Shown: positions 209 to 29,252 of the stretch, piece after piece
Position numbering within the stretch: the first letter of the stretch is position 1
How the letters are laid out: each line of letters begins with the position of its first letter
Source of the DNA: Candidatus Hermodarchaeota archaeon
GTDB taxonomy: Archaea > Asgardarchaeota > Hermodarchaeia > Hermodarchaeales > Hermodarchaeaceae
Direction: 5' to 3'
DNA: 46,956 bases
Assembly: GCA_016839805.1 (NCBI GenBank)
Contig: JAEOTO010000025.1
Location: forward strand, 1 to 46,956
Program-made: the position numbers and the translations under genes
The notes under the pieces: model-generated
The model's input: the letters and a program-made list of their open reading frames with translations, nothing else
Databases searched by the model: none
Told to the model about the DNA's origin: nothing

Positions 209-359
209 AAAAAAGTTGTGGTTTCAAACAAAATGTGGTGAAACGGAAAGAGGGGGTAATAGCCGATTCTGGTGCAACTCTGCAGTACGAGTGGAACAAG
301 ATTCAGTCCTGTCTTATGTAGTGTATAAACTAAGGCTATGGTGTTGAAGCCTGGATTGG

Positions 360-812
360 TTATTCTGACCTAATATGTGCAATTAGCGAAGGCATCATCC
401 GGAGACCCACAAGTACTCCCATGATGTAAAAGAATACGGCATACAGAATAGGGAAAATATCACGCATGATTCCCATGAACGAAAGCAGCAAACCGTAAAT
501 GTAGGGTGCTGACACCCCAATCACTACGGATGCTACTGCGTAGACATATCCTTTGTCAGGATCAAATCTTTTTGCTCGATGATAGAAGTACCAGGTAAGA
601 GGCAGGCCCAATGTTATGTAAAAGACTACTAGAATGATTGCAAGAATATTGTTCAGGGTATCTATAAAGATGAGAGTTAACTGCACTGCGCCTCCACGTT
701 GATACACTAAGAATATTGTCAGCAGGACATAGACTACGAACGAAAAGAACAAGATCCAGAACACAAGTACTCGAGCACGCAACCGGAATGATTCATCCGA
801 TACTTCTGACAT
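360..812 (-). CDS. hypothetical 4-TM membrane protein
   Basis: 150-aa ORF with four hydrophobic segments. Confidence 0.7.
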   Translation of the reverse strand: MSEVSDESFRLRARVLVFWILFFSFVVYVLLTIFLVYQRGGAVQLTLIFIDTLNNILAIILVVFYITLGLPLTWYFYHRAKRFDPDKGYVYAVASVVIGVSAPYIYGLLLSFMGIMRDIFPILYAVFFYIMGVLVGLRMMPSLIAHIRSE

Positions 813-1044
813 AAGCTAATCGTGGTAGGTAGTATCAGAAAAACATAACGCCATAGAAATATTAGTGCCACCATTTGAATAATGAAGGAGACGAGTCAGG
901 TGGTTCAGAATTCGAACGAGTAGCAGCATCTTTGACTAGTTCTCGTTGAGTTGAATTGCTAAAGCTTATTAGCCAAAATTACTAGCTCCTTCACAAGACC
1001 CTTACGGGTTGATAAAACGTTTGAATCAATTGAAGTGAAAGCAC

Positions 1045-1317
1045 ATGTCCAACGAAACTGCAGGAACTTTAGCATTAGTGGGTGGTATCCTCAACCTCAT
1101 CGGTGGTATACTTATTACAATCGCCTTACTCTTTACCATCATTTTAGCTCCCTTGGGAATATTTGCACTGCTTCTTGGAATCTTACCAATTATGTGGCGC
1201 GACGACCCTGGCTCCCACCGAGTTGGCTTAATCATCATCGGTGTATTAACTCTTTTTTCCATTGGTGGTATTCTGATTCTCGTTGCAGGAATCATCGCCG
1301 AAGAAGAAAAAGACTAA
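1045..1317 (+). CDS. small multi-TM membrane protein
   Basis: 90 aa, Gly/Ile/Leu-rich helices, acidic tail; T-tract follows at ~1362-1368. Confidence 0.75.
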   Translation: MSNETAGTLALVGGILNLIGGILITIALLFTIILAPLGIFALLLGILPIMWRDDPGSHRVGLIIIGVLTLFSIGGILILVAGIIAEEEKD

Positions 1318-1422
1318 CTCCCCCAATAATTGACACCAAACTCAATTGACCACCCTACTCCTTTTTTTCTATGTTATAGATTATGAATAGACAGGCTGAC
1401 TTTAGTAGAGCGGGATTTTCTC

Positions 1423-1458
1423 TGTTCAAATCTGTTTTCTCGCTGTTCAAAAATGTAG
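1423..1458 (+). promoter_or_regulatory. tandem TGTTCAAA repeat (21-bp period), candidate transcription-factor site
   Basis: TGTTCAAA at 1423 and 1444; same arrangement at 3604/3625. Confidence 0.55.
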
Positions 1459-1510
1459 GATAATATGTCCTTGAAACCTAATTTACTTCAAATCATTGTA
1501 GGTAATTCTG

Positions 1511-2185
1511 ATGAATCGAAAATGGTTAGGTTTGATAGTGATCCCGGTTGTACTTGGAGTGCTGCTTGCATCGCCCTTTTTGTTGAGCCTGTTTGCTCCT
1601 GCTCCTCCTGTGGATAATGGAAACATTGGAACATCACTTTCGAGCTTCATGGAAGAAAAATCCTCAGATATCTTAGCTGTTCAGATTTTAGGCAATTCCA
1701 CTGATATTGTATACCCGGAATTATTGGCGGCACTTTTTGTGCCAAATGTCACGGGTGCGTGGATCGTGTCAGCAACTTTTCTCAATGACACACCTGGACC
1801 CGGTAATCCTTCGCTATACCACGAAAATTTCCTGACGACATTAGCCGAAGTGGAAAACATCAACAATGCTCTTTATTCTGGACTCGATGCAACAAGTTCC
1901 TCTTCGGACTCCATCTCTGACATATTGTCCCCTATTGGCTTTGGCTTAGATATTCTCTACGAAGATGGAACGTGGGTTCAGGTTTTCTCTATTCAAAGTT
2001 CGACAGGACACATTATGTTCCTCAATGGCACATATACGGGCACTCCTGATACAGTCAATCCATTCGATCCGAATTTTATTCAACGTGACGAAAACTGGCA
2101 AAATGGCATCCTCTTAGAGCCGGGTACTGCACTTGATAATCTCGTTGTTGTAATGAACGAAGTCTTTGTTAACCATCTTGGTTAA
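1511..2185 (+). CDS. hypothetical N-terminally membrane-anchored extracellular protein
   Basis: Basic then hydrophobic N-terminus, Pro linker, acidic S/T/N-rich domain with several N-x-S/T sequons (NST, NVT, NDT, NGT). Confidence 0.75.
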   Translation: MNRKWLGLIVIPVVLGVLLASPFLLSLFAPAPPVDNGNIGTSLSSFMEEKSSDILAVQILGNSTDIVYPELLAALFVPNVTGAWIVSATFLNDTPGPGNPSLYHENFLTTLAEVENINNALYSGLDATSSSSDSISDILSPIGFGLDILYEDGTWVQVFSIQSSTGHIMFLNGTYTGTPDTVNPFDPNFIQRDENWQNGILLEPGTALDNLVVVMNEVFVNHLG

Positions 2186-2255
2186 CATCTCGAACGTTTA
2201 CATATTCAATGAGATTCTCGGTAGTTCAACCGTGATTACTAGCTGTGATGCGGTG

Positions 2256-2696
2256 TTACCAGACAAGGGTTTTGTCTTTATGCTGTTCAAAACAGTTGGA
2301 ACAGACACGCACATAGAGCTGGGTTTCAGGATTTTCCAGGGTATGCTCAATGATTTCATTATCTTCGATGGGTAACCCTTTTCCACAGAGATTACACCGG
2401 TAGGTGGCTTCAATTTGGAATTGGATTACACGAGATGGACAATTGTACACACGGACATTTCGATGAAGGCTTCCTAATTCTCGCATATCCCCCATTACCC
2501 GGAGGGAATGAAGAATTGGGTACATGCCGACAAAACTTTCTCCGCAAAGACCTTCCGGGGTATTCCACGTAAATTCAAAGGGTTCTCCTGTTTTGTGACC
2601 TGCTCGACAATTCCCATCCTTGATGACTGTCACTTTGAATTGTACCGGTTCGTTCCATAACTCTCCGATCTTTAACACATCTTCTTTCGTATTCAT
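2256..2696 (-). CDS. TIGR04076-like protein with C-terminal Zn-ribbon
   Basis: G.C..GHK.G..F...PEGLC...F..+YP...CP pattern, plus C-terminal CxxC...CxxC. Confidence 0.7.
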   Translation of the reverse strand: MNTKEDVLKIGELWNEPVQFKVTVIKDGNCRAGHKTGEPFEFTWNTPEGLCGESFVGMYPILHSLRVMGDMRELGSLHRNVRVYNCPSRVIQFQIEATYRCNLCGKGLPIEDNEIIEHTLENPETQLYVRVCSNCFEQHKDKTLVW

Positions 2697-2839
2697 ACTG
2701 TTTTCCTCTCACTACTACTATTTTCCCTCATGGATTTCTGCTTTACGTAACCTCTGTGCAAGTCTTCTTTTGAGTAGGTAAGGTAAACTCAAACCCCAAC
2801 TTCGGGTATTCGTAACCTTAGTTGGCAGGGTCCAATGCG

Positions 2840-3463
2840 TCATTGTTCTTGTTGTTTACGTTGTGTCCGTCGTTTGCGCTTGTAATTCTGATAGCGTTTG
2901 AGGAAGAAGGCGCCAATGGCGATAATGAAGAGCACATTCATGATGATTAGGATGCCAAGGTTCTGAAAATCGGTACCGATGAGATTACCGTGCACGATGA
3001 CAAAAACGAGGACAAGGTACATGAGTGCATGGAAGTAACGCCAGTATTTAGGAATAATCAATCGTAAAAGTGCAGCAACGGTAGCAATGTAGAGAATGTA
3101 GAGGGCAGGGCGCCCTGCGAGCTCCCAGAAGATTATCCAAGAATCAAATCGGGGAATAAACACCGCTAAATCCATTTGCAGAATGGCAAAGAAAACTGGA
3201 TGTAAAGTGGCAAAGATGAGGCCAAAGACTGCGAACAGATGATGGATTCGGATAAAAGGTCGACCAAAAGCTTGGGTGATCTCTTTGAGAAATGGTGTCA
3301 TCGCCGTAGCAATAGCTAGTGCGGTAAAGCCATACAAAGCACAGAGTCGAATAGCAAATCCTAGTGGGTCGAAATAAGATGTGAAGAGTGCTAGAATTGT
3401 AACGAGAACATAAAGCAATAGTACACCAAAAAGAAACAACCATCCGTTTCGTTTGATTGGCAT
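2840..3463 (-). CDS. ferric-reductase-like transmembrane (MsrQ-like) heme protein
   Basis: Six TM segments; paired His (RIHH...LH; WRYFH...VH) typical of bis-His heme b ligation. Confidence 0.75.
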   Translation of the reverse strand: MPIKRNGWLFLFGVLLLYVLVTILALFTSYFDPLGFAIRLCALYGFTALAIATAMTPFLKEITQAFGRPFIRIHHLFAVFGLIFATLHPVFFAILQMDLAVFIPRFDSWIIFWELAGRPALYILYIATVAALLRLIIPKYWRYFHALMYLVLVFVIVHGNLIGTDFQNLGILIIMNVLFIIAIGAFFLKRYQNYKRKRRTQRKQQEQ

Positions 3464-3603
3464 GATAATAACCTAGTTAGATACCTTAGGCTATGTTCTT
3501 CTTTAAAGTAATATAATTAAGTTTATTTTAGTGAAACCTACATCGGCTCAAGGACCGCTGTATAGGTTCGTCATCCTCCATCTATAGGGTACAACCAGTT
3601 GAG

Positions 3604-3650
3604 TGTTCAAAACTATTGTACGACTGTTCAAAAATTTAGATTATTGAACC
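3604..3650 (+). promoter_or_regulatory. tandem TGTTCAAA repeat (21-bp period) plus inverted TTGAAC half-site
   Basis: TGTTCAAA at 3604 and 3625; TTGAAC at ~3644. Confidence 0.55.
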
Positions 3651-3701
3651 TACTACACCACTCTTAGTAAAAGGAAAATTTCCCCTTCGGGGGGTTTTGT
3701 A

Positions 3702-4379
3702 ATGGGTTTCATTCAAAAAATCAAGAAGGTCTTATTAGAAATCAGCGGATACTTGATACTACTAATCCAACAAATTCCAGCATTGGGAGTCTATGTTGGT
3801 GTAATGACACTTCCCCTTTTCGTATTTCTTTTCCTTTTGTTTTCTCAACTTCCTCTTAATTTCATTACCGAAATAGCAGGCTTCTTCCTGGTAAGTTTCC
3901 TGTCTTTAGGTGGTATAATAGCGAATATCCTGGTCATAAGTGGACTGATTCTAGCCATCTATTCTATAGCCTATTTACATCGGCATAAAAATGAGGGATT
4001 GGTTACCACCGGACCGTACCGATATATCCGGCATCCTCAATACACAGGCTTCCTCCTCTTTACGCTTGGTTTGACAGGGCTTAGTTACTGGTTTCTCTCA
4101 ATCACCTTTGGTATGGGATGGTTGTCTCGCGAAGCCACCATTCTCCTCTGGTTTGGACAGCTCGCAGCATACATCATATTGGCTCTACTTGAGGATCATC
4201 ACCTAGCAAAAGAGTTCGGTGAGACGTTTACCACATACAAGAGTCAGGTCCCATCACTGATTCCCATTGGAAGAACTAGCCGTTTGGATATCCCCATCTC
4301 AATTGGAATATTCAGTTTGCTGGTAATAGGCGCCATCATGTTACAAATGATTGGAATCGGAGGCCCCACCTTCGGTTAA
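3702..4379 (+). CDS. isoprenylcysteine carboxyl methyltransferase / PEMT-family membrane methyltransferase
   Basis: LVTTGPYRYIRHPQYTG and ED..L...FG..F..Y...VP motifs. Confidence 0.85.
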   Translation: MGFIQKIKKVLLEISGYLILLIQQIPALGVYVGVMTLPLFVFLFLLFSQLPLNFITEIAGFFLVSFLSLGGIIANILVISGLILAIYSIAYLHRHKNEGLVTTGPYRYIRHPQYTGFLLFTLGLTGLSYWFLSITFGMGWLSREATILLWFGQLAAYIILALLEDHHLAKEFGETFTTYKSQVPSLIPIGRTSRLDIPISIGIFSLLVIGAIMLQMIGIGGPTFG

Positions 4380-4484
4380 TCACACAGGAGATAACCAATA
4401 AACACGATATTCTTGCTTGTCATAATATCGGATTCTAGAAAGTGTTAAGATACTGGTGGGTCTATGAGTATTGAGGGTTTCTAG

Positions 4485-5426
4485 GTGATTGTTGATGCAC
4501 ATTACCATTTGTATTGGGATGACTCAGATCCCATGGACTTTCTAATGGGCTGCGCACGGGTCGGCGCCCGGCGGTTCTCCAAAAACACGCCAGAGCCTAT
4601 GGATGCTGAACAACTGTTGCAAATGCAACTACCCATCCTGGCTGATGAATCAGGTGACAAACTAGTACAACTTATGGATGAATCCGGAATCGACAAGACG
4701 ATCCTCCTACCTCTAGACTACTGGTACTGGTTTGAGACCTCCAAGAATGCCCAACCCTATGATATTGTGAAAAAGAACGAAATCTATGCGAAAGCAACGA
4801 AAAACCATGAAGGGCGACTTTATACGCTGTTCGGGATCGATCCTCGTCGGAAAAAGAGTGTCTCAGCCTTCGAAAAAGCTGTAACGAAATGGGATATGAA
4901 GGGACTAAAACTTCATCCAACAACACGCTACTATCCCGATGACCCTGTGTGCTATCCTCTCTACGAGAAAGCTCTCGAGTTACAAGTGCCAATTGTGATT
5001 CATTCAGGGAATCAGCCAGCGCCGATGCCTGCTAAGTACTCAGAACCCAAATACATTGACACGGTTGCTGCAGATTTTCCTGAGTTGAAAATTGTGGTTG
5101 CGCATATCGGGCATGGCTGGTGGCGACAGACTTTGGATTTAGCATCCATGAAACCGAATATGTACGTGGACTTTTCTGGCTGGCAAGGCGTATACCAACA
5201 TGATCCCGCATATGTAGCTGGCGTAATACGTTCTGCCATCGACATGTTGGGGCCATGGCGGGTGCTCTTCGGCTCTGATGGTGCCCTACTCAATGTCATA
5301 ATGCCCCTTCCAGAATGGGTTGATACGATTAAGAACCTCAATTCTGTAGGGAATGCTAAATTCACAAATGAAGAATTCGAAATTATCTTAGGAAAAGCTG
5401 CAACCTATCTTTTTTCACTTCAGTAG
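4485..5426 (+). CDS. amidohydrolase family 2 protein
   Basis: IVDAHYH, GLKLHP, VIHSG, VAHIG and VLFGSD motifs. Confidence 0.9.
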   Translation: MIVDAHYHLYWDDSDPMDFLMGCARVGARRFSKNTPEPMDAEQLLQMQLPILADESGDKLVQLMDESGIDKTILLPLDYWYWFETSKNAQPYDIVKKNEIYAKATKNHEGRLYTLFGIDPRRKKSVSAFEKAVTKWDMKGLKLHPTTRYYPDDPVCYPLYEKALELQVPIVIHSGNQPAPMPAKYSEPKYIDTVAADFPELKIVVAHIGHGWWRQTLDLASMKPNMYVDFSGWQGVYQHDPAYVAGVIRSAIDMLGPWRVLFGSDGALLNVIMPLPEWVDTIKNLNSVGNAKFTNEEFEIILGKAATYLFSLQ

Positions 5427-5611
5427 ATTTACCCACAAAACCTTGGATTTACTTATAGGGGCTTTTCCTTCCTTAGATGACAAATGTCAGTTTCTGGTGA
5501 GGGCTAAGCGGTATTCCAAACAGAAGAGCTTTTATACCATAAACGTAGAATGCCTTCTCACATTGTGAGAAAATTAAGAACAAAATCAGGATAAATACTG
5601 AGGAGAAAGGC

Positions 5612-6904
5612 ATGTCAGGGTCAACAGGAAATGGGATTCGTGGATACTGGCATCGGATTCGCCTGTTCAGCCCAAACGCTCGAAAATACATGCTTGCGAA
5701 TACCATCTTAGGGTTTGCCTATGGGGTATCAAATACTATTTTCAACTTGTATCTGTTGGCTTTAGGTTATACCAATGCCTTCCTGGGTGGTATTCTTTCT
5801 ATCAGTTTCTTGGCCCTAGCCTTGAGTTCACTAGCTGTAGGTTCCATCTGTATGCGCATTGGAGCCAAACGCGCTACGATTCTCGGCGTATTTATCATGA
5901 CCTTTACTGCTCTCTGGCGAGTCTGGTTCCCCACGCCAGAAGTTCTCATACTTGGAGCAATAATTGAAGGGGTGGGCTATTCTCTGACCTGGGTTGCCTA
6001 CGGTCCCTTTTTGTCTGAACAAAGTGCCTCATATGAGCGAACGCACCTGTTTGGCACCACCCAAGCCTTGAACGTCATCAGTGGGTTTGTTGGTAATACG
6101 TTCGCGGGTATTATTCCCGTGTGGATTGCTATCACCTTTGCTCTGCCAATTGATAGTGCCATTGCTTTTCAGTTAGCGTTAATTTCTTGGATCATTCCAT
6201 TGGTCGTTACGCTTGTTCCATTACTCTTTATCCGGGATCACACTCAGGCAATCCAACTCAAGGAGGCTATGAAAATAGATAGAAACGTGGAGAATGAACA
6301 AAAATCCATCACAGAAAAACGAAGGAGTGTTCTGTGGATTATCGTTGCCTTTTCTGTGGTCTATGCGATTTTAGGAATTGGTGCTGGGTTCATTGTGCCA
6401 TTTCTGAATGTTTTCTTCTGGGATTTTTACAATTTACCGACTCCAATCGTCGGGTTAATCCAAGGCCTTGGCTCTGCTACAGTGGCACTGGGCGCCTTCT
6501 TAGCCCCGATGTTATCCACGCGAATAGGCAAGGCTCGTGCAATCATGGTCGTACAAACCCTTTCACTCCCCTTTCTTGTCGTCCTTGCTACTATCATTAA
6601 TCCCTTCATTGCTGGTATAGCCTACATCCTTCGCCAAGTCTTTATGACAGCTGCTATTCCCATTGATGGTGCCCTCCAAATGGAGCTGGTGCCAACTTCT
6701 TGGCGCACTCATCTTAGTGCAATGATTACTTTTTCTTTCAATTTAGCGCTAGCCTTTAGCGTTCAAATTACCGGACAGCTTTACGATTTGGGCCTTTACT
6801 TACTTCCCTTCTGGTTCACATTGATATGTTACAGTATAGGCACCGCCCTTTACGTCATCTTCTACAAACCAGAAAAACGCTTAACTACACAACCAGGGAA
6901 GTAG
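5612..6904 (+). CDS. MFS transporter
   Basis: About 12 TM segments in two halves, with motif-A-like RIGAK and RIGKAR loops. Confidence 0.9.
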   Translation: MSGSTGNGIRGYWHRIRLFSPNARKYMLANTILGFAYGVSNTIFNLYLLALGYTNAFLGGILSISFLALALSSLAVGSICMRIGAKRATILGVFIMTFTALWRVWFPTPEVLILGAIIEGVGYSLTWVAYGPFLSEQSASYERTHLFGTTQALNVISGFVGNTFAGIIPVWIAITFALPIDSAIAFQLALISWIIPLVVTLVPLLFIRDHTQAIQLKEAMKIDRNVENEQKSITEKRRSVLWIIVAFSVVYAILGIGAGFIVPFLNVFFWDFYNLPTPIVGLIQGLGSATVALGAFLAPMLSTRIGKARAIMVVQTLSLPFLVVLATIINPFIAGIAYILRQVFMTAAIPIDGALQMELVPTSWRTHLSAMITFSFNLALAFSVQITGQLYDLGLYLLPFWFTLICYSIGTALYVIFYKPEKRLTTQPGK

Positions 6905-6995
6905 CAAATTCACGATGAATCTCAGATTGAATTTTAACCTTTAACTCTCATTGATAGAGCAAGTTGCATTCCCCTTTCTCATTGAGGTTAAAAAG

Positions 6996-8126
6996 ATGAA
7001 ATTTGAGCGATTTGAGTTGGAGCGTATCCAATCTGAATGGGAGCATATTGTCAAATACAATCTAAGTGAAAGCGGAGTCGAAGCTCTTCGGGTTAGCGAT
7101 CTTATCAAGGATACTTCTCTTCAACACCAATTTCTAAATCAGAGTCTAGGGTATCCGCAAACGAATGGGACAATTCCTCTAAGAGAACTCATTAGTAGTC
7201 AATATCCCGATCTTTCCGCTGATCATGTGACGGTAACAAATGGTGGGGCGGAAGCGAATTTTATCTCTTTGCTTGGTTTGAGCCAACAACGCGATAACCG
7301 TAATGAAATGGTCATGTTGATGCCGAACTATATGCAGCTTTGGGGATTTGGAAAAGCCCTAGGCTACCGAATGAAGTCTTTCTATTTACAGGCATCATCC
7401 ACTGAATGGATTCCAGATATTGAAGGATTGAAACGGCAGCTCTCTAAGAAGACGCATCTAATCGCCATTTGCAATCCGAATAATCCCACAGGTGCTATAA
7501 TGGACGCCGATTCGCTAAAGGCTATTGCGGAGTTAGCACAGGATGCTAATGCTTGGGTGTTATCCGATGAAATCTATCGTGGCGCGGAACTCAATGGCTC
7601 AATCACACCATCCATGCTCGAATTTCATGACCAGACACTTGTGACCTGCGGATTATCGAAAGCCTATGGACTCCCAGGGTTACGGATTGGATGGGTGGCC
7701 AGCGCTAACGACGCATTCATCTATGATCTTTGGGCTATGACTGATTATACCAGTATTGCGCCCTCTTTACTCAGTGACGCCTTGGCAACCCTTGCCCTCC
7801 AGCCGCAGAACCGCAAAGAAATCCTCGCCCGTACTCGAACCATTCTTCGCACGAATTGGTCGATTGTTAATAACTGGCTCACGGAACATTCGCATCTTAT
7901 CGACTGTATTCCACCAAAGGCTTGCGCTGTCTGTTTACCCAAATACCATGCCGATATTGGATCAGTGGATTTGGCACACCGTCTTATCCAAGATAAAAGT
8001 GTCCTAGTTCCTCCTGGTGATTATTTTCAAATGCCCCGCCACTTACGTATTGGTTTTGGATATAATACAGACAAATTAACAATGGGTCTACATCTTATTA
8101 CTGAAACACTTCAATCCATTACGTGA
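6996..8126 (+). CDS. class I/II PLP-dependent aminotransferase
   Basis: NPNNPTG, DEIY, GLSKAYGLPGLRIGW; start moved to ATG 6996, which follows a GAGG RBS. Confidence 0.9.
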   Translation: MKFERFELERIQSEWEHIVKYNLSESGVEALRVSDLIKDTSLQHQFLNQSLGYPQTNGTIPLRELISSQYPDLSADHVTVTNGGAEANFISLLGLSQQRDNRNEMVMLMPNYMQLWGFGKALGYRMKSFYLQASSTEWIPDIEGLKRQLSKKTHLIAICNPNNPTGAIMDADSLKAIAELAQDANAWVLSDEIYRGAELNGSITPSMLEFHDQTLVTCGLSKAYGLPGLRIGWVASANDAFIYDLWAMTDYTSIAPSLLSDALATLALQPQNRKEILARTRTILRTNWSIVNNWLTEHSHLIDCIPPKACAVCLPKYHADIGSVDLAHRLIQDKSVLVPPGDYFQMPRHLRIGFGYNTDKLTMGLHLITETLQSIT

Positions 8127-23129: not shown

Positions 23130-23175
23130 AAGAAGAGTGCAACCGCCTAAACAATATATTAGGGGATCTATTATC

Positions 23176-23628
23176 ATGACACAACCACCCCCAAATTCAG
23201 AGCAATTAGCTCAACGATTAATAGCCACCATTCAAGCCCTTGAAGAAGAAATGGTTCGGGGACAAAATAACCTTCAAATGATTGATCTCCAGTTACAACG
23301 GCTTGTTGAAACCGCCGCTGCGGTCCGCGAGTTGAAAAACCACAAACCCGGAGATGAAATCATGGTAAATATAGGCTCAGGAATTCACCTTCATGTCCAG
23401 CTTACTGATAATAAACGGGTGGTTACCTCCATGGGTGCTGGGTTTGCGGCTGAAAGAACTGTGGACGAGGCCCTTACTCGATTCGAAGAACAACAAAAAC
23501 AGCTGACGGATCTTGCTAAACGTCAACAAGAACAGCTACGCAATACACAAAATCAGCTAGAAGCCAGTCAAGCTCAACTTAATCAATTAATTCAATCCGC
23601 CCAGCAACAACCATCAAAACAACCATAG
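23176..23628 (+). CDS. pfdA: prefoldin subunit alpha
   Basis: Coiled coil / beta hairpins (EIMVNIGSG, V..MGAGF..E) / coiled coil; synteny. Confidence 0.9.
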   Translation: MTQPPPNSEQLAQRLIATIQALEEEMVRGQNNLQMIDLQLQRLVETAAAVRELKNHKPGDEIMVNIGSGIHLHVQLTDNKRVVTSMGAGFAAERTVDEALTRFEEQQKQLTDLAKRQQEQLRNTQNQLEASQAQLNQLIQSAQQQPSKQP

Positions 23629-23653
23629 GGAAGCTATTTTTGGGGCTATTGAG

Positions 23654-24565
23654 GTGTTTGAAAAACTTCGTAAGGCAGTAGATGGGTTCATCCAAAAGAT
23701 TACCCTTAAGGAGATTAGCGAAAAGAACCTTGATGAAGCATTCTCAGATCTCCAAATGGCTCTACTCGCCAACGATGTGGCTTATGAGGCAGCTGAAAGA
23801 ATCAACCATCGTGTAAAAGAAACTCTTGAGGGAGTTCAAATTGGTCGGTTACAAAGTAAAAAGGACGCAATTCGTGAAGCACTCTATGATGCCATTTTAG
23901 ATGCGTTGACACCTGACTCTCCGGTTAATCTTTTTGAACTACTTGAGCAGCGAAAAAAGGCAAATGAGCCTCTAATTATCATGTTTTTGGGGGTAAATGG
24001 CACTGGGAAAACAACAACAATCGCGAAAATAACCCACATGCTTCAAAAAAGGGGATACACTGTTGTTCTCGCATGCGCCGATACCTTCCGGGCAGGTAGT
24101 GCAGAACAAATCCAAATACATGCAGATCGACTCAAAGTCCGCGTGCTAAGCCGACCCTATGGTTCCGATCCAGCATCCGTAGCGTTTGATGCAATTAATC
24201 ATGCCAGGGCCCGTGGAGTCAACGTCGTATTGATTGATACCGCAGGGCGGATGCAAACGGATAAGAATCTCATGGCTGAACTCCAAAAAATTCACCGGGT
24301 TGCAGAACCTGATTTGGTCGTTTTTGTAGGGGATGCCCTTGCGGGTAATGATGCAATTGAACAGGCCAAGACCTTTAATGAAAAAATAGGAATAGACGCC
24401 GCGGTGCTTACAAAAGTCGATGCTGATGCTAAAGGTGGCGCAGCACTTTCCATAGCAATTGCCACAGGTAAACCTATAATCTTCGTCGGTGTCGGTCAGA
24501 AATATTCTGATATTGAAAGTTTCAATCCTGAATGGTTCACTGAAAAAATCGCACCCATTAAGTAG
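23654..24565 (+). CDS. ftsY: SRP receptor FtsY
   Basis: GVNGTGKTTT, DTFRAG, DTAGR, TKVDADAKGG. Confidence 0.97.
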   Translation: MFEKLRKAVDGFIQKITLKEISEKNLDEAFSDLQMALLANDVAYEAAERINHRVKETLEGVQIGRLQSKKDAIREALYDAILDALTPDSPVNLFELLEQRKKANEPLIIMFLGVNGTGKTTTIAKITHMLQKRGYTVVLACADTFRAGSAEQIQIHADRLKVRVLSRPYGSDPASVAFDAINHARARGVNVVLIDTAGRMQTDKNLMAELQKIHRVAEPDLVVFVGDALAGNDAIEQAKTFNEKIGIDAAVLTKVDADAKGGAALSIAIATGKPIIFVGVGQKYSDIESFNPEWFTEKIAPIK

Positions 24566-24846
24566 TTTTTCACACTAAGTTATGGTGACACAAAGGCTAA
24601 AAGGCAACAACGGTTGCAGGTTCATCGTTGGTTTCACTGTGTGTGATAACGATGGAATTGAAAGGACGACATTTGTTAAGTTTGAAAGATTACACGCGTG
24701 AAGAAATGTGAAGTTTTTCAGGTAATTTCTTTTAAAAACACTAAGTATCATTCCATCATTCACCACTAACCGCTTATATCCCCACCCTACCCCCCCGCGG
24801 GGTATTCTCACTAAATGCCGTAATAAAAAATTCCCCACTTTGGTCG

Positions 24847-27000
24847 ATGTGCAATATCAGGTCACTTGAGAATAACGGTTATGAGAAATGTGTGGAACAC
24901 AAACAAGACCTTGACCATCGATATGTCCATAGACAAACTACCACCTTAGAGAAACTTCGAAAATTAGAAAGAGACTGTAGCAATCCAACTGATGTTGTAC
25001 TCCGTGCTGCTGATAATCCTGAATTCCGTGCTCAGCTTCTCCCCGCTCGCGAACTCAATTCACATGCGGTCGAAACTTTACTTAGTCTATGTCATCAAGA
25101 GGGAGTGAGGTTTCTTGATCCAACAAGCTTCACCAGCATAAACAACCACACTCAATATAATCAGGCTTTGCGTGCATTTCCACTCATCCAAAGCCATCAT
25201 CAATTCGACAAACTTCACCGACAAGTCAAAATTTACTTCCTACTCCGTGAGAGTACACTTCGCCACCCAAATGAAACTTTTGCCTTCGGTCTTCTCGCAG
25301 ATTACGCCGCTGTCAGCAGAGTTACCATCCATTATTGGTTCAAGGGGACATTTCGCCCACGTCTCTTGGGGCTCCTCGAAAAACGCGCAGCCACGCTTAC
25401 TGTCCACCAACATCGCGTAGCTAAATTACGCAAAGCAGAAAACGGTATTCGCTCTTTAGATGACCTTACAAATCGCCTACACAGTAGGTACTTCAGATTT
25501 AGTGACAAACTCCAAGCCAATCCCAATTTCTCCCAAGAGATCAACGACGCTGTTAACCATCTCAACCTCCTCAACCTAGTAGAAGCCGGAATCCACCCTA
25601 GTGACCTCGCAACACACTTCAATCTTCACAAGGACACAATTCGTCAAACTCTTCGTCAGCAATTCCAGCCCCATCTTATCCGTCTCGCCTCTAATATTCC
25701 TAAACATCCACCCAATCATAAACTTCAATGGGTTCCCACACTGACAAATGGTAATGGTGTTCCCAATCGATTCATACAAGCCCCTTGCAAAATCTACAAG
25801 TACGAACAGCTGCTCCCTGTCTTTAACCAGCTCGTTACACTCACTAATCCCGACTCAAACCTGACACGCCAACTCAACGAATTCGGACCTAGTTCAATCA
25901 TCATTAAGAAGTGGATTTCTCAATTTGGTTTAGTCGAAACCCTCGAAGATAAAATCCACGCTTTTGGTTATATCATTGGAACACTCCTTAGCGATGGACA
26001 CATCGCCTTAGAATCCACTTATAGTAGTCAATTCAAAATCGAACTCTCTAGCAAATATTCTTGGAGCAAAACCTTTGGAAACCGCGTCGTGTACTACCTT
26101 ACCTGTCTGGGTGTTCCTACAAAATTTTTAGGAGCCATTCCTGCAAAACCACCCGAAAGACCTCATCCTTGCTACATTTGGCACTCTGTAAAAACTCCTT
26201 TCCTCACATGGATTAATGAAGGGGTATTAAATCTCGAACAAGGTCAAATCCACAGTGACTACCCTGTCAAAATTAACTGGGTGCTCGATGCCCCACGCTC
26301 TTTTCAAATCAAAATCCTGCAAGGGCTCTTCGATGGCGATAGTTGGGCCTCTGTTATTAATAGTGAAATCGGAATTGCGTCAAAGGTGAATACAGATTTC
26401 ATCGAACAACTGTTGCTTCAGGTTGAAATAAAACCAAATAAGTGTGAATCAAACCAGCTTCTTATAAAAACAAAGAATACTTTACGACAGGCTGTAGAAT
26501 TACCTATTTTCCTTTCTGCTACTAATAGGTTCGAATGTGCCAATAAGATAATACATATGTTAGACCGTACTAGGCTTTCACCGACAGCTATCGATAACCT
26601 CCCCTTAATCCGTCGAATCCACGAAATCAGACAAGACATGCACCTTTCGATTGGTCAAATTCGAATAAAAATATACGAAGAATTCAGGATAACCCTATCT
26701 TATGGGGCAATCAAGAGAATACTCGATAATATTGATGAACGCCAAAAAATCGACTATGACACTGTTCAAACCTTCTTTCGCGTTTTAGAACTTAAGCAAC
26801 AATTTCCCAATATTTCTCACAGACAACTCGCTAGAAGGGCTATCGAAGAAACCAACTCTACTAAAAGCATAGAAACACTTAGAGGTTGGATTCGTGGTAA
26901 TATTCCGAGAGATGCTAAGCGGGCTTTTTCCGAAGGCTATTTTTTCAACAAAGAAATCCTGCGGGTTAACCCCTACCTATACAAATACCTGCCGAAATAG
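24847..27000 (+). CDS. free-standing double-motif LAGLIDADG endonuclease-like protein with several HTH-like domains
   Basis: AFGYIIGTLLSDG (~25960-25998) and LQGLFDGD (~26317-26340); four HTH-like segments; no intein termini; start codon uncertain. Confidence 0.7.
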   Translation: MCNIRSLENNGYEKCVEHKQDLDHRYVHRQTTTLEKLRKLERDCSNPTDVVLRAADNPEFRAQLLPARELNSHAVETLLSLCHQEGVRFLDPTSFTSINNHTQYNQALRAFPLIQSHHQFDKLHRQVKIYFLLRESTLRHPNETFAFGLLADYAAVSRVTIHYWFKGTFRPRLLGLLEKRAATLTVHQHRVAKLRKAENGIRSLDDLTNRLHSRYFRFSDKLQANPNFSQEINDAVNHLNLLNLVEAGIHPSDLATHFNLHKDTIRQTLRQQFQPHLIRLASNIPKHPPNHKLQWVPTLTNGNGVPNRFIQAPCKIYKYEQLLPVFNQLVTLTNPDSNLTRQLNEFGPSSIIIKKWISQFGLVETLEDKIHAFGYIIGTLLSDGHIALESTYSSQFKIELSSKYSWSKTFGNRVVYYLTCLGVPTKFLGAIPAKPPERPHPCYIWHSVKTPFLTWINEGVLNLEQGQIHSDYPVKINWVLDAPRSFQIKILQGLFDGDSWASVINSEIGIASKVNTDFIEQLLLQVEIKPNKCESNQLLIKTKNTLRQAVELPIFLSATNRFECANKIIHMLDRTRLSPTAIDNLPLIRRIHEIRQDMHLSIGQIRIKIYEEFRITLSYGAIKRILDNIDERQKIDYDTVQTFFRVLELKQQFPNISHRQLARRAIEETNSTKSIETLRGWIRGNIPRDAKRAFSEGYFFNKEILRVNPYLYKYLPK

Positions 27001-27133
27001 AGTTTATCATATATGTTACAGGGATAACAAGCATCACTATTAAGCGACTTAACTAGCGGTTAAAAATTATAGGTAGGCAACAACTAAATACCTCAAACAA
27101 CTGCTGTGCTTTATTATTTAAGGTGTTTATGCA

Positions 27134-28063
27134 ATGAACCTTAAAGGCCGTCACTTGTTGACACTTCAAGACTTTAGTAGAGAAGAACTGACTCTTCTCC
27201 TTGATACTGCTGCAGATTTGAAACGGCTCCGGTATCGCAGTGAATTGGGAACAAGCCTTCTTGGAAAATCTGTGGGTATGATATTTGAACGTCCCTCAAC
27301 ACGAACACGAGTCAGTTTTGAAGTGGCAATCAATGAACTCTCCGGTGATTCATTGTTCCTCAGTTCACAGGAACTACAGTTGAGCCGTGGCGAACCAATC
27401 GCTGATACCGCCCGTGTACTTAGTCGATATCTACACGGTATAGTGATTCGAGCCACCAACCATGAACATGTTGTTGAACTCGCTGAACAGAGCACCGTTC
27501 CTGTAATTAATGCCCTTACACCGATGTACCATCCTTGTCAAGCTCTGGCAGATCTTCTCACCATAAAGGAGAAATTACACGAATTGGAGGGTTTAAAACT
27601 AGCATATGTGGGAGATGGCAATAATGTCTGCCATTCCTTGATGCTGAGTGGTGCCACGATGGGATTGGAAGTCATGGTTGCCACACCTTCCGGTTATGAA
27701 CCCAATCTCAAGGTTACAAAAATTTCTCGAGCACGTGCCGAAGAGAACATGAGTAAAGTTGAAGTTACTAATGATGCCAAAGCAGCAGTTCAAGATGCCG
27801 ATGTCATCTATACAGATGTCTTTGTGTCCATGGGACAAGATAAGGAACGGGCTAAACGCCTTGCTGAGTTCCTTCCTGACTTTCAGGTCAATGAATCCCT
27901 TGTGAAATTAGCGGCTCCCCATTGTATAGTCATGCATTGCCTACCGGCACATCGTGATGAAGAAATTACTGATAGGGTTATTGAGGGATCTCATAGTGTT
28001 GTGTGGGATCAAGCGGAAAATCGGCTCCACACAGAAAAAGCTGTACTAGCCTTACTCCTTTAG
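27134..28063 (+). CDS. argF: ornithine carbamoyltransferase
   Basis: STRTR, HPCQ, SMG, HCLP, QAENR. Confidence 0.96.
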   Translation: MNLKGRHLLTLQDFSREELTLLLDTAADLKRLRYRSELGTSLLGKSVGMIFERPSTRTRVSFEVAINELSGDSLFLSSQELQLSRGEPIADTARVLSRYLHGIVIRATNHEHVVELAEQSTVPVINALTPMYHPCQALADLLTIKEKLHELEGLKLAYVGDGNNVCHSLMLSGATMGLEVMVATPSGYEPNLKVTKISRARAEENMSKVEVTNDAKAAVQDADVIYTDVFVSMGQDKERAKRLAEFLPDFQVNESLVKLAAPHCIVMHCLPAHRDEEITDRVIEGSHSVVWDQAENRLHTEKAVLALLL

Positions 28064-28087
28064 GCGTTGCGAAATGGAAGAATCAAA

Positions 28088-28927
28088 GTGACGACTGTCT
28101 GTTTCTGTTCCTGCAAAGATCTAGCAGCCCAAGCTATCAAGGAGCAACTGCTTAAGCTCTATCAATTCACAGAAACTGACCAACGCTTCGACTCTTATCC
28201 CATCTACACACTTGATCAACTGTCGCTAGTAACAATCGAACAAGATAGTATTTACGCCGATAATCTAGATCAGCACTTCACAGCCGATTTATTCATCTTT
28301 GCATCTCGTCACAAATCGGCTGCTTTCAAACCTGCTCTTCTCACCCATGTTCCTGGAAATTGGACAGATGCCGACTTGGGAGGAAAAGCCTCCACACTTT
28401 GCGTAGCTCCATCTTCAGCTTTGAAAATTGCCTTGCAGATAATGCTTGAAGAACGGCGTCGCCTTAAGCTAACAGACTGGGCTTGTGGACTGGAAGCCAC
28501 TCATCATGGGCCTTTCATTGCAAACATCCCTGTTCTTTACATTGAAATCGGCAGTACTGAACAGGAATGGCAAAATCCTACTGCGGCAGAAATTATTGCT
28601 CGAACAATTATGGCCGTCTACCAACGTCACGACGAAACCTATCCTACAGTTCTTGGATTCGGGGGTCCACATTATTGTCCGAGCTTCACACGTTTATGCG
28701 CAGAAACGCAATATGCAGTTGGACATGTGTTACCGAAATATCATCTGGACCAACTAAACGAATCAATGGTTCAACAGGCAATTCATCAAAGTTCCCCTCC
28801 TCCAACCATAGCCGCTTTAGATTGGAAGGGTATGAAAAGTAGACACCGGGAACAGGTGAAGCATATCGGGGAACACCTAGGGTTAGAGATTCAACGTGTT
28901 CGCAAACTACTGCACCAACAAGACTAG
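28088..28927 (+). CDS. dtdA: archaeal D-aminoacyl-tRNA deacylase (DTD2/GEK1 family)
   Basis: SRHKS, H.PGN, EATHHGP, EIGS...W, GGPHY. Confidence 0.92.
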   Translation: MTTVCFCSCKDLAAQAIKEQLLKLYQFTETDQRFDSYPIYTLDQLSLVTIEQDSIYADNLDQHFTADLFIFASRHKSAAFKPALLTHVPGNWTDADLGGKASTLCVAPSSALKIALQIMLEERRRLKLTDWACGLEATHHGPFIANIPVLYIEIGSTEQEWQNPTAAEIIARTIMAVYQRHDETYPTVLGFGGPHYCPSFTRLCAETQYAVGHVLPKYHLDQLNESMVQQAIHQSSPPPTIAALDWKGMKSRHREQVKHIGEHLGLEIQRVRKLLHQQD

Positions 28928-29020
28928 TAACTTAAGTTTCATTATGCTAATGCGAAAAGACTTATTAGGAGAGGCACGGTGAGACTGCCCAAGACCTCTA
29001 GTTGACCATAGGTGTATAAA

Positions 29021-29206: not shown

Positions 29207-29252
29207 ATCCCAAAAATTGGCGTTTTAATTCTGTGACATGGAGACAAACAGG

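Follow-up and report, generated by a model that had tools for sequence, protein, structure and literature searches.

Homing elements are usually thought to need an intron or an intein to sit harmlessly in essential sequence. The element described here lies in a 46,956-nucleotide (nt) stretch of DNA from Candidatus Hermodarchaeota archaeon (assembly GCA_016839805.1, contig JAEOTO010000025.1, positions 1 to 46,956; hereafter the window). There, a gene for a 717-amino-acid (aa) LAGLIDADG protein, P0001, interrupts argF, the gene for ornithine carbamoyltransferase, and is followed by a second version of the beginning of that gene. This arrangement is probably that of an end-swapping homing element, in which a multi-helix-turn-helix (HTH) LAGLIDADG endonuclease gene is combined with a replacement 5' end of its target, argF.

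Among described systems, the WHO elements of Torulaspora and Lachancea, located at FBA1, combine a LAGLIDADG gene with a replacement 3' gene end (Coughlan et al. 2020, PMC7282813; Osborne et al. 2026, preprint, 10.64898/2026.08.13.744650). A comparison of these elements with the argF locus reveals a shared plan. In both, the endonuclease gene moves together with a substitute end for an important host gene, whose former end survives as a displaced fragment able to serve as a homology arm; the host gene is a chimera whose end and body have discordant phylogenies, and neither RNA nor protein splicing takes part. The two systems nevertheless differ in setting and in parts. WHO elements occupy the yeast nucleus and swap the 3' half of a gene, whereas the argF element occupies an archaeal chromosome and swaps the 5' end along with its start codon and upstream region. 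The piece swapped at argF measures only 19 codons, the site holds a single element and not a cluster, and cleavage by its enzyme is predicted. Where WHO proteins carry a Hint remnant and a zinc finger, the archaeal protein carries HTH-type arrays, with no WHO/HO ancestry evident. Because it has neither Hint remnant nor zinc finger, the argF element is an analogue of WHO on a different LAGLIDADG lineage and not a member of the WHO/HO family by descent.

A second comparison is offered by the mORFs (mobile open reading frames, ORFs) of fungal mitochondria, which have been described with a carried C-terminus in atp6 of Allomyces macrogynus and in atp6, atp9, cox2 and nad3 of Glomus (PMC3630166). 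Like the argF element, these are free-standing LAGLIDADG (there also GIY-YIG) ORFs that have entered coding sequence; the interrupted gene is completed by a divergent duplicate end of foreign origin, and the native end remains nearby, near-identical to that of the closest empty relative. Unlike the argF element, they are found in an organelle, they supply C-terminal ends and their ORF is often in frame; at argF an N-terminal end is supplied and the endonuclease is a separate gene on an archaeal chromosome.

The seg and mob genes of T-even phages are likewise endonuclease genes outside any intron or intein. Their intronless homing spreads by double-strand-break repair and co-converts flanking markers, a likeness to the mechanism proposed below for argF. 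The free-standing endonucleases of T-even phages sit between genes and are not known to leave a displaced duplicate gene end. At the level of the protein, P0001 shares the catalytic-core fold and two motifs with acidic residues with I-DmoI, I-Tsp061I, PI-PfuI and PI-SceI. Those enzymes belong to rRNA introns or inteins and comprise about 180–450 aa, whereas P0001 is free-standing, has 717 aa and exceeds these monomeric enzymes by helical modules of about 360 aa at the N-terminus and about 135 aa at the C-terminus.

In the literature, no description of end-swapping homing elements in archaea was found, and the Asgard mobile-element papers checked mention other nucleases only. New at the argF locus is the swap of a gene head with its start codon and upstream region, the published cases involving 3' ends only, in yeast nuclei and fungal mitochondria. 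Beside introns and inteins, end-swapping offers a third solution, which the argF locus and its paralogues place on archaeal chromosomes as well. In a 5'-end swap the element must also carry the signals for starting transcription and translation. By this route a selfish element can give a metabolic gene a new regulatory region and form gene chimeras that cross species boundaries. This is of relevance to the annotation of Asgard genomes and to the reading of gene trees.

Insertion of the element within argF

The source genome of the window (G000) is a metagenome-assembled genome (MAG) of 50 contigs, 87% complete and with 3% contamination. The genomes compared with it are also MAGs, and the congener panel consists of the 14 other genomes of the genus. 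All 14 have an empty site, where ftsY is followed by argF after about 90–100 nt without an endonuclease gene. The earlier note on this DNA had proposed this comparison of empty alleles beforehand as a test of mobility, and the outcome favours mobility. The closest congener, G013 (96% aa identity in FtsY, 93–94% in ArgF), aligns with the window over 23165–24707 and again over 27194–29000. These exact breakpoints delimit an insert of about 2.49 kb, with a margin of about 3 nt at its left end and of up to about 6 nt at its right end. The insertion point is codon 19 of argF, within the gene rather than in the ftsY–argF spacer. The endonuclease gene had been described as lying between ftsY and argF with no host gene interrupted. 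The two neighbours were verified by their TIGR00064 and TIGR00658 matches, but the element is inside argF and not intergenic; the host gene is broken at codon 19 and its original head is found at 24652–24707. The features of the locus, from left to right, are:

23654–24565, + strand: ftsY, the conserved left neighbour (Pfam SRP54; TIGR00064, 320 bits)
24566–24651, + strand: ancestral ftsY–argF spacer, which aligns to the empty-site spacers of the 14 congeners
24652–24707, + strand: displaced original argF head (the stub), ATG plus 18 codons, ending in ATG-TGA at 24706–24711
24708 to about 27190, + strand: inserted element of about 2.49 kb, absent in 14/14 congeners and bounded by the G013 breakpoints
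24708–24846, + strand: left element end and sequence leading up to the endonuclease gene, conserved in part in a metagenome contig of a second lineage (L069), with an A/T box, TTTTAAAAAC, at 24730–24739
24847–27000, + strand: endonuclease gene P0001, 717 aa (ORF call, AlphaFold2 model and ratio of nonsynonymous to synonymous substitution rates, dN/dS)
27001–27133, + strand: element-borne argF upstream region of 133 nt, with an A/T box, AAAAATTATAGG, at 27062–27073 and the right copy of the repeat AGGCAACAAC at 27075–27084
27134–27190, + strand: replacement argF head, codons 1–19 (MNLKGRHLLTLQDFSREEL), joined in frame to the body of the host argF
27134–28063, + strand: argF (ornithine carbamoyltransferase), chimeric and intact, 309 aa, with both OTCace domains complete

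On the left side, the block shared with G013 breaks after GAAGAAAT and the insert starts with GTGAAGTTTTT, thereby supplying an in-frame TGA to the stub. The stub includes the original start codon at 24652 and is identical to the argF head of G013 at 53/54 nt. A tblastn search with aa 1–19 of ArgF also finds it, at 68% identity (E 2e-4). The host upstream region and the first 18 codons are thus a dead stub 5' of the endonuclease gene. On the right side, the element contributes an upstream region and codons 1–19 of its own, which complete argF after its split at codon 19; the argF product matches TIGR00658 at 426 bits (cut-off 281).

The new head and the argF body to which it is fused resemble different relatives. 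Relative to G013, 21/54 nt differ in the head (39%) as against 71/864 in the body (8%; Fisher p 4e-9). Relative to G011, which has an empty site and a native MNL-type head of the same type as the imported one, the differences are 6/54 nt in the head (11%) and 224/864 in the body (26%; Fisher p 0.014). When aligned, the imported region appears to resemble the sequence upstream of G011 argF as far as about 35 nt 5' of the ATG, and a BLAST match between G011 and the imported head of the second lineage, described below, starts 14 nt before the ATG and ends 60 nt inside the gene. The imported head looks as though it was captured from a G011-like argF. The G011 allele could either have supplied the captured head or be naturally resistant. 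Another congener, G009, has GAAGAGCTGACT (EELT) at argF codons 17–20, as does the resident G000 allele at its junction codons.

Both heads are preceded by candidate promoters. In the ancestral spacer, the block AAAGGCTAAAAGG at 24592–24604 is conserved genus-wide, in all congeners, and is likely the native argF B recognition element (BRE)/TATA. The region 27001–27133 is homologous to the element of the second lineage and, near the ATG, also to the native upstream region of G011 argF; it is presumed to be the replacement argF promoter.

The order of these parts, with the old end on one side and a fused copy on the other, is the same as that of integrase elements that rebuild their target. On that reading the argF-like head would correspond to the target copy on the attP side, in the manner of elements that integrate into tRNA genes, and the insert would have been moved by a site-specific recombinase encoded elsewhere. 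The insert itself argues against such an origin: it holds no recombinase gene, the endonuclease gene being its only sizeable ORF, and its ends show no terminal inverted repeats or attachment (att) core. The two junctions have only GAAGA(A/G) in common, with no identical core, and the two heads are 39% different. An integrative element of this kind is highly improbable. A chimera of assembly or binning, joining unrelated DNA within argF, might be suspected in a source genome of 50 contigs with the completeness and contamination given above. Both junctions, however, lie deep within a 47-kb contig, and the same left junction and right arrangement recur in independent metagenome assemblies from other samples, which leaves such an artefact scarcely credible.

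Splicing elements were also considered as a setting for the endonuclease gene. An intron-encoded endonuclease, whether of group I or archaeal type, was rejected: a search for introns and structured RNAs with Rfam gave no match at E ≤ 1 in 24400–27300, and what makes the host gene whole again is a duplicated head rather than splicing. An intein was rejected too, the earlier note having seen no intein Cys/HN termini. The ORF stands apart from argF with a start and a stop of its own, the TGA of the stub lies 135 nt before it, Pfam gives no Hint match, and structural alignment to inteins covers their endonuclease domains only. Elsewhere in G000 no DNA copies of the insert were detected, save for weak similarity to the paralogue on contig C48.

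The gene had also been reported to be flanked by a 10-bp direct repeat, and the repeat is present, AGGCAACAAC occurring exactly twice, at 24602–24611 and 27075–27084. Its suggested role as an insertion scar did not survive. The left copy belongs to the ancestral spacer and stands 97 nt ahead of the left junction; G013 reads AGGCATCAAT at that place. The right copy lies inside the insert, about 105–120 nt from the right junction and 49 nt before the new ATG. Since the same 2.9 kb contains three exact 10-mer direct pairs, the repeat, taken as a blind match, is at chance level. At the same two positions the second lineage has AGGCGTCAAT and AGGTAACAAC (7/10 identity), so the pair is not conserved. 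For these reasons a target-site duplication was rejected. Each copy stands just 3' of an A/T-rich box, AAAGGCTAAAAGG at 24592 and AAAAATTATAGG at 27062, and the two may be corresponding parts of two argF promoters, one ancestral and one borne by the element.

The endonuclease protein

The ORF at 24847–27000 on the + strand encodes 717 aa between its own start and stop, as first reported, and both of the LAGLIDADG-like motifs with acidic residues noticed at that time are present, at aa 374–385 and 490–499. An AlphaFold2 model of P0001, built with 62 relatives, has a mean predicted local distance difference test (pLDDT) of 94.1 and a predicted template modelling score (pTM) of 0.85. The parts of the protein are:

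25294–25647, + strand: N-terminal helical modules of DNA-binding type, containing two HTH-like segments (aa 150–167 and 254–267), from the model helices and the HTH matches of relatives
25942–26571, + strand: double LAGLIDADG core, aa 366–575, from Foldseek and VIA structural alignment
25966–26001, + strand: motif 1, GYIIGTLLSDGH, aa 374–385, with D383 (GTLLSDG)
26314–26343, + strand: motif 2, ILQGLFDGDS, aa 490–499, with D496 and D498
26599–26997, + strand: C-terminal helical region, aa 585–717, containing the other two HTH-like segments

The core has the pseudo-dimeric alpha-beta-beta-alpha-beta-beta-alpha fold of the family. It superimposes on I-DmoI, I-Tsp061I, I-SceI, PI-PfuI, PI-SceI and WhiA with Z scores of 12–15.5 and a root-mean-square deviation of 2.5–3.2 Å over 160–195 residues (Z 13–15.5 and 2.5–3.0 Å over 160–190 residues for I-DmoI, PI-PfuI, PI-SceI and WhiA); WhiA is among its top structural matches (Z 14.3–14.8). 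At the sequence level, a search of the PDB with P0001 returned nothing at E ≤ 1. The Pfam family LAGLIDADG_3 is matched by paralogues and orthologues at 25–31 bits and by 46/62 aligned relatives at E ≤ 0.01, the best at 1.6e-13. Given the modelled fold, the motifs and the Pfam matches of relatives, the family call made earlier is upheld, and the assignment of P0001 as a two-motif LAGLIDADG endonuclease of the monomeric type holds. No Hint or zinc-finger family was found by Pfam in P0001 or its 62 relatives.

The enzyme looks functional as judged from its sequence. None of the 62 relatives departs from D496, and D383 and D498 are kept in at least 90% of them. The dN/dS of the endonuclease gene is 0.16–0.25 (0.18–0.25 against the L045/L069 orthologue of the second lineage), indicating purifying selection.

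Four HTH-like segments had been noted, two on each side of the core, and this description stands in part. All fall within confidently modelled helical modules, and relatives match Pfam HTH families (HTH_23 in 16/62, HTH_28 in 9/62, also HTH_3 and other HTH families). P0001 itself, however, has only a weak match to HTH_32 (E 0.02), and the evidence for the C-terminal segments is not decisive. Folded alone, aa 580–717 reach a pLDDT of 94.5. This domain weakly matches bipartite and three-helix HTH domains of the Pax, Tc3 and CENP-B type, with a best Foldseek E of 0.25 and VIA Z scores of 5–7.5, the best over 51 residues; Z scores up to 7.5 are within the range reached by common helical arrangements. 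An HTH nature of the modelled C-terminal domain is likely, as a tentative assignment. Longer relatives, of up to about 1500 aa, carry additional helical or HTH-type modules.

The composition of the gene is uneven. In codons 121–420 (25207–26106), third positions are 32–40% C and 3–13% G, compared with about 20% C and 13–18% G in ftsY and argF. The GC skew of this segment reaches −0.38, and the 3' third of the gene is nearer to host composition. This skew may mean that the gene is of foreign origin or a mosaic, or it may be a strand effect.

A second lineage and the same layout at other genes

Two metagenome contigs from another study, L069 and L045, each carry one half of the same arrangement. 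L069 contains the 3' end of ftsY, the spacer, a decayed old head (start codon changed from ATG to CTG, with a 1-nt insertion) and the same insert end, GTGAAGTTTTT; its junction reads CGTGAAGAG/CTGTGAAGTTTTT and is followed by the N-terminus of a 65%-identical endonuclease. The stub is closed by an insert-supplied TGA in both occupied lineages. L045 contains the remainder of a 68%-identical endonuclease and then argF, beginning MNLKGRHLLTL. The host flanks of these contigs are nearest to G006, G002 and G005 (argF body 91–94%, ftsY and spacer 87–89%), all of which have empty sites. Their imported head is nearest to the imported head of G000 (80.7%), and next to G011. By sequence comparison, the element is found at the same nucleotide position in two host clades, each with empty sites in its nearest sequenced relatives. 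The next-closest homologue, P0152 (59% identity, 1047 aa), was found on a contig of 31.7 kb.

A count of paralogues and their contexts, which the earlier note had proposed, identified family members with 28–45% identity on contigs C48, C12 and C42 of G000, with duplication of a gene end at the sites that could be resolved. On C12 (locus L048), the endonuclease gene (3080–4696, + strand) stands at the tail of a gene for a threonyl-tRNA synthetase (ThrRS) editing domain (4748–5170, − strand). The stranded old tail, ESGRSLD* (7 codons and the stop), lies with native downstream sequence at 2955–2978, about 100 nt 5' of the endonuclease start, and the replacement tail abuts the endonuclease stop. 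At this site 10/12 congeners have no endonuclease gene, and G012 has a 70.6%-identical orthologue. Two of these ten, G005 (L051) and G006 (L052), hold inserts of about 170 nt and about 520 nt between the new tail and a likely remnant of the old one. No endonuclease gene or remnant is detectable in either insert, and that of G006 contains an ORF of about 110 aa; the inserts could be leftovers of endonuclease loss or cargo brought in by the same route.

The same layout is found in a Hermodarchaeota MAG of the sister genus (locus L063, JABXGV010000142.1, 159–7001), where two family members stand in tandem (703–3156 and 4458–7001). Upstream of the first, a duplicate of the MoxR tail covers 46 aa at 159–296 (91% identity, E 1.6e-23), and the stop of the first endonuclease gene abuts the functional MoxR tail (MoxR gene, 3169–3978). 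The MoxR ORF begins right at the Walker A motif, and its own head may be disrupted too. The closest paralogue in G000 (45% identity) lies at 29232–31384 of contig C48 (locus L047). It ends 35 nt from a thiolase-like head fragment of 29 aa, 93% identical to the G013 orthologue, the gene body of which is not in the assembly. A swapped head of tldD at this locus was considered and rejected, as the tldD head and 200 nt upstream of it are native and 91% identical to G013. The C48 spacer contains no tRNA or credible RNA family. At the start of contig C42 (locus L049, 268–3188), two family members have their 3' ends facing each other, at 268–1509 (+ strand) and 1524–3188 (− strand; LAGLIDADG_3, 23 bits). 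All resolved cases share one order: displaced end, endonuclease gene, and replacement end fused to the gene.

Beyond these loci, the family comprises 254 cluster representatives at E ≤ 1e-3 among 1.8 billion. A locus scan found 6 loci in the genome collection and 2 distant loci only in the metagenome collection. Within the phylum, 44/201 sampled genomes have matches at E ≤ 1e-10, concentrated in two families (14/18 and 25/43). Copies are usually several per genome and patchy, many lie at contig ends, and some are fragmentary or interrupted by stops, a distribution that fits a selfish element.

This distribution also bears on the second of two options raised in the earlier note, namely that the gene is a domesticated DNA-binding factor in the manner of WhiA, in which an inactive LAGLIDADG scaffold and HTH arrays would stand beside argF by chance. 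The place of WhiA among the top structural matches and the several HTH-type modules of the protein speak for it. Such a factor is nevertheless very unlikely, for the gene is missing at the argF site in 14/14 congeners, its presence varies between sister species, it is multi-copy and partly broken within a restricted set of genomes, the catalytic Asp is kept, and each examined copy is tied to a duplicated gene end. The other option, a free-standing homing element, is much the stronger of the two and needs one amendment: the element sits within argF with a replacement 5' end, and not in a spacer.

Proposed mechanism of end-swapping

In the proposed mechanism, the enzyme would cut argF heads of type A (MELKGRHLLSLKD[YF]TREEIQ) near codon 19 wherever a genome has no element. 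Repair of the break would draw on an occupied chromosome, with the argF body as the right homology arm and ftsY, the spacer and the old-head stub as the left one. Repair would copy in the endonuclease gene and the new head, and the recipient's own head would turn into the new stub. The occupied allele would be immune, since its stub is truncated at the site and its new head differs at 21/54 positions. From the position of the junction and the divergence of the heads, selective cutting of empty over resident alleles is inferred. With its ATG 139 nt past the junction, the endonuclease gene lies in the direction of the putative native argF promoter left stranded, which may express it, while argF would run from the imported upstream region. 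The scheme as a whole is the model proposed for WHO elements, transposed to the 5' end of a gene.

Several points weigh against reading the locus as an end-swapping homing element. P0001 itself scores 22.3 bits for LAGLIDADG_3, just short of the gathering cut-off of 22.5. The imported head of L045 retains GAAGAAATTCAAC as in the empty alleles, and immunity in that lineage would have to come from other head positions. The recognition site and the cleavage are deduced from where the junction falls, and the promoter assignments come from inspection of sequence only. On C48 the contig breaks off 76 nt beyond the start of the endonuclease gene, cutting the locus short. Finally, synonymous divergence (dS) between the occupied lineages is about 1.15 for the element and about 1.36 for the host argF body, values close enough that age alone cannot separate repeated transfer from old residence with losses.

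This closeness of element and host is what favours a resident relic, in which the insertion and the head duplication are real, the endonuclease is inert, and the element is inherited vertically with occasional loss or movement by homologous recombination. The fragmentary or stop-interrupted copies in the family favour it too. Against this, the dN/dS values and the conserved catalytic Asp argue for a maintained enzyme. G000 and G013 are separated by a dS of 0.33–0.44, yet the stub of G000 is pristine relative to the G013 head, and this favours a recent arrival. Moreover, a decayed stub such as that of L069 cannot regenerate an intact type-A head, and the intact heads of G013, G006, G002 and G005 cannot have arisen from one; gain is thereby favoured over loss. 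A relic of this kind is unlikely.

Extended from the argF element to its family, the argument leads to a broader and tentative proposal, which is judged possible though short of probable. The family, found mainly in two families of Asgard archaea, may constitute a third category of archaeal homing element beside introns and inteins, able to swap either end of a gene, with the head form exchanging the promoter and taking over the native one for expression of the endonuclease. Such elements might continually move gene ends and regulatory regions between species and seed gene cassettes without an integrase. The family is in addition a resource of enzymes, combining LAGLIDADG cores with variable HTH-type arrays; candidate targets can be read from the junctions, which makes it useful for studies of long-site recognition.

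Two minor observations concern genes near these loci. Beyond the old tail of the ThrRS-editing gene on C12, at about 2700–2900 on the minus strand, lies an eS26-like coding sequence (LPSKRKSGGRSKGSTGRGATVQCSSCGKIVPRDKAKKRT...). An ORF of 286 aa at 1881–2741, called as a methyltransferase, overlaps it in another frame, and the N-terminal extension of this ORF is probably spurious. In the window, an archaeal host is marked by the neighbouring genes, among which profile matches place eIF-6, prefoldin and archaeal D-aminoacyl-tRNA deacylase.

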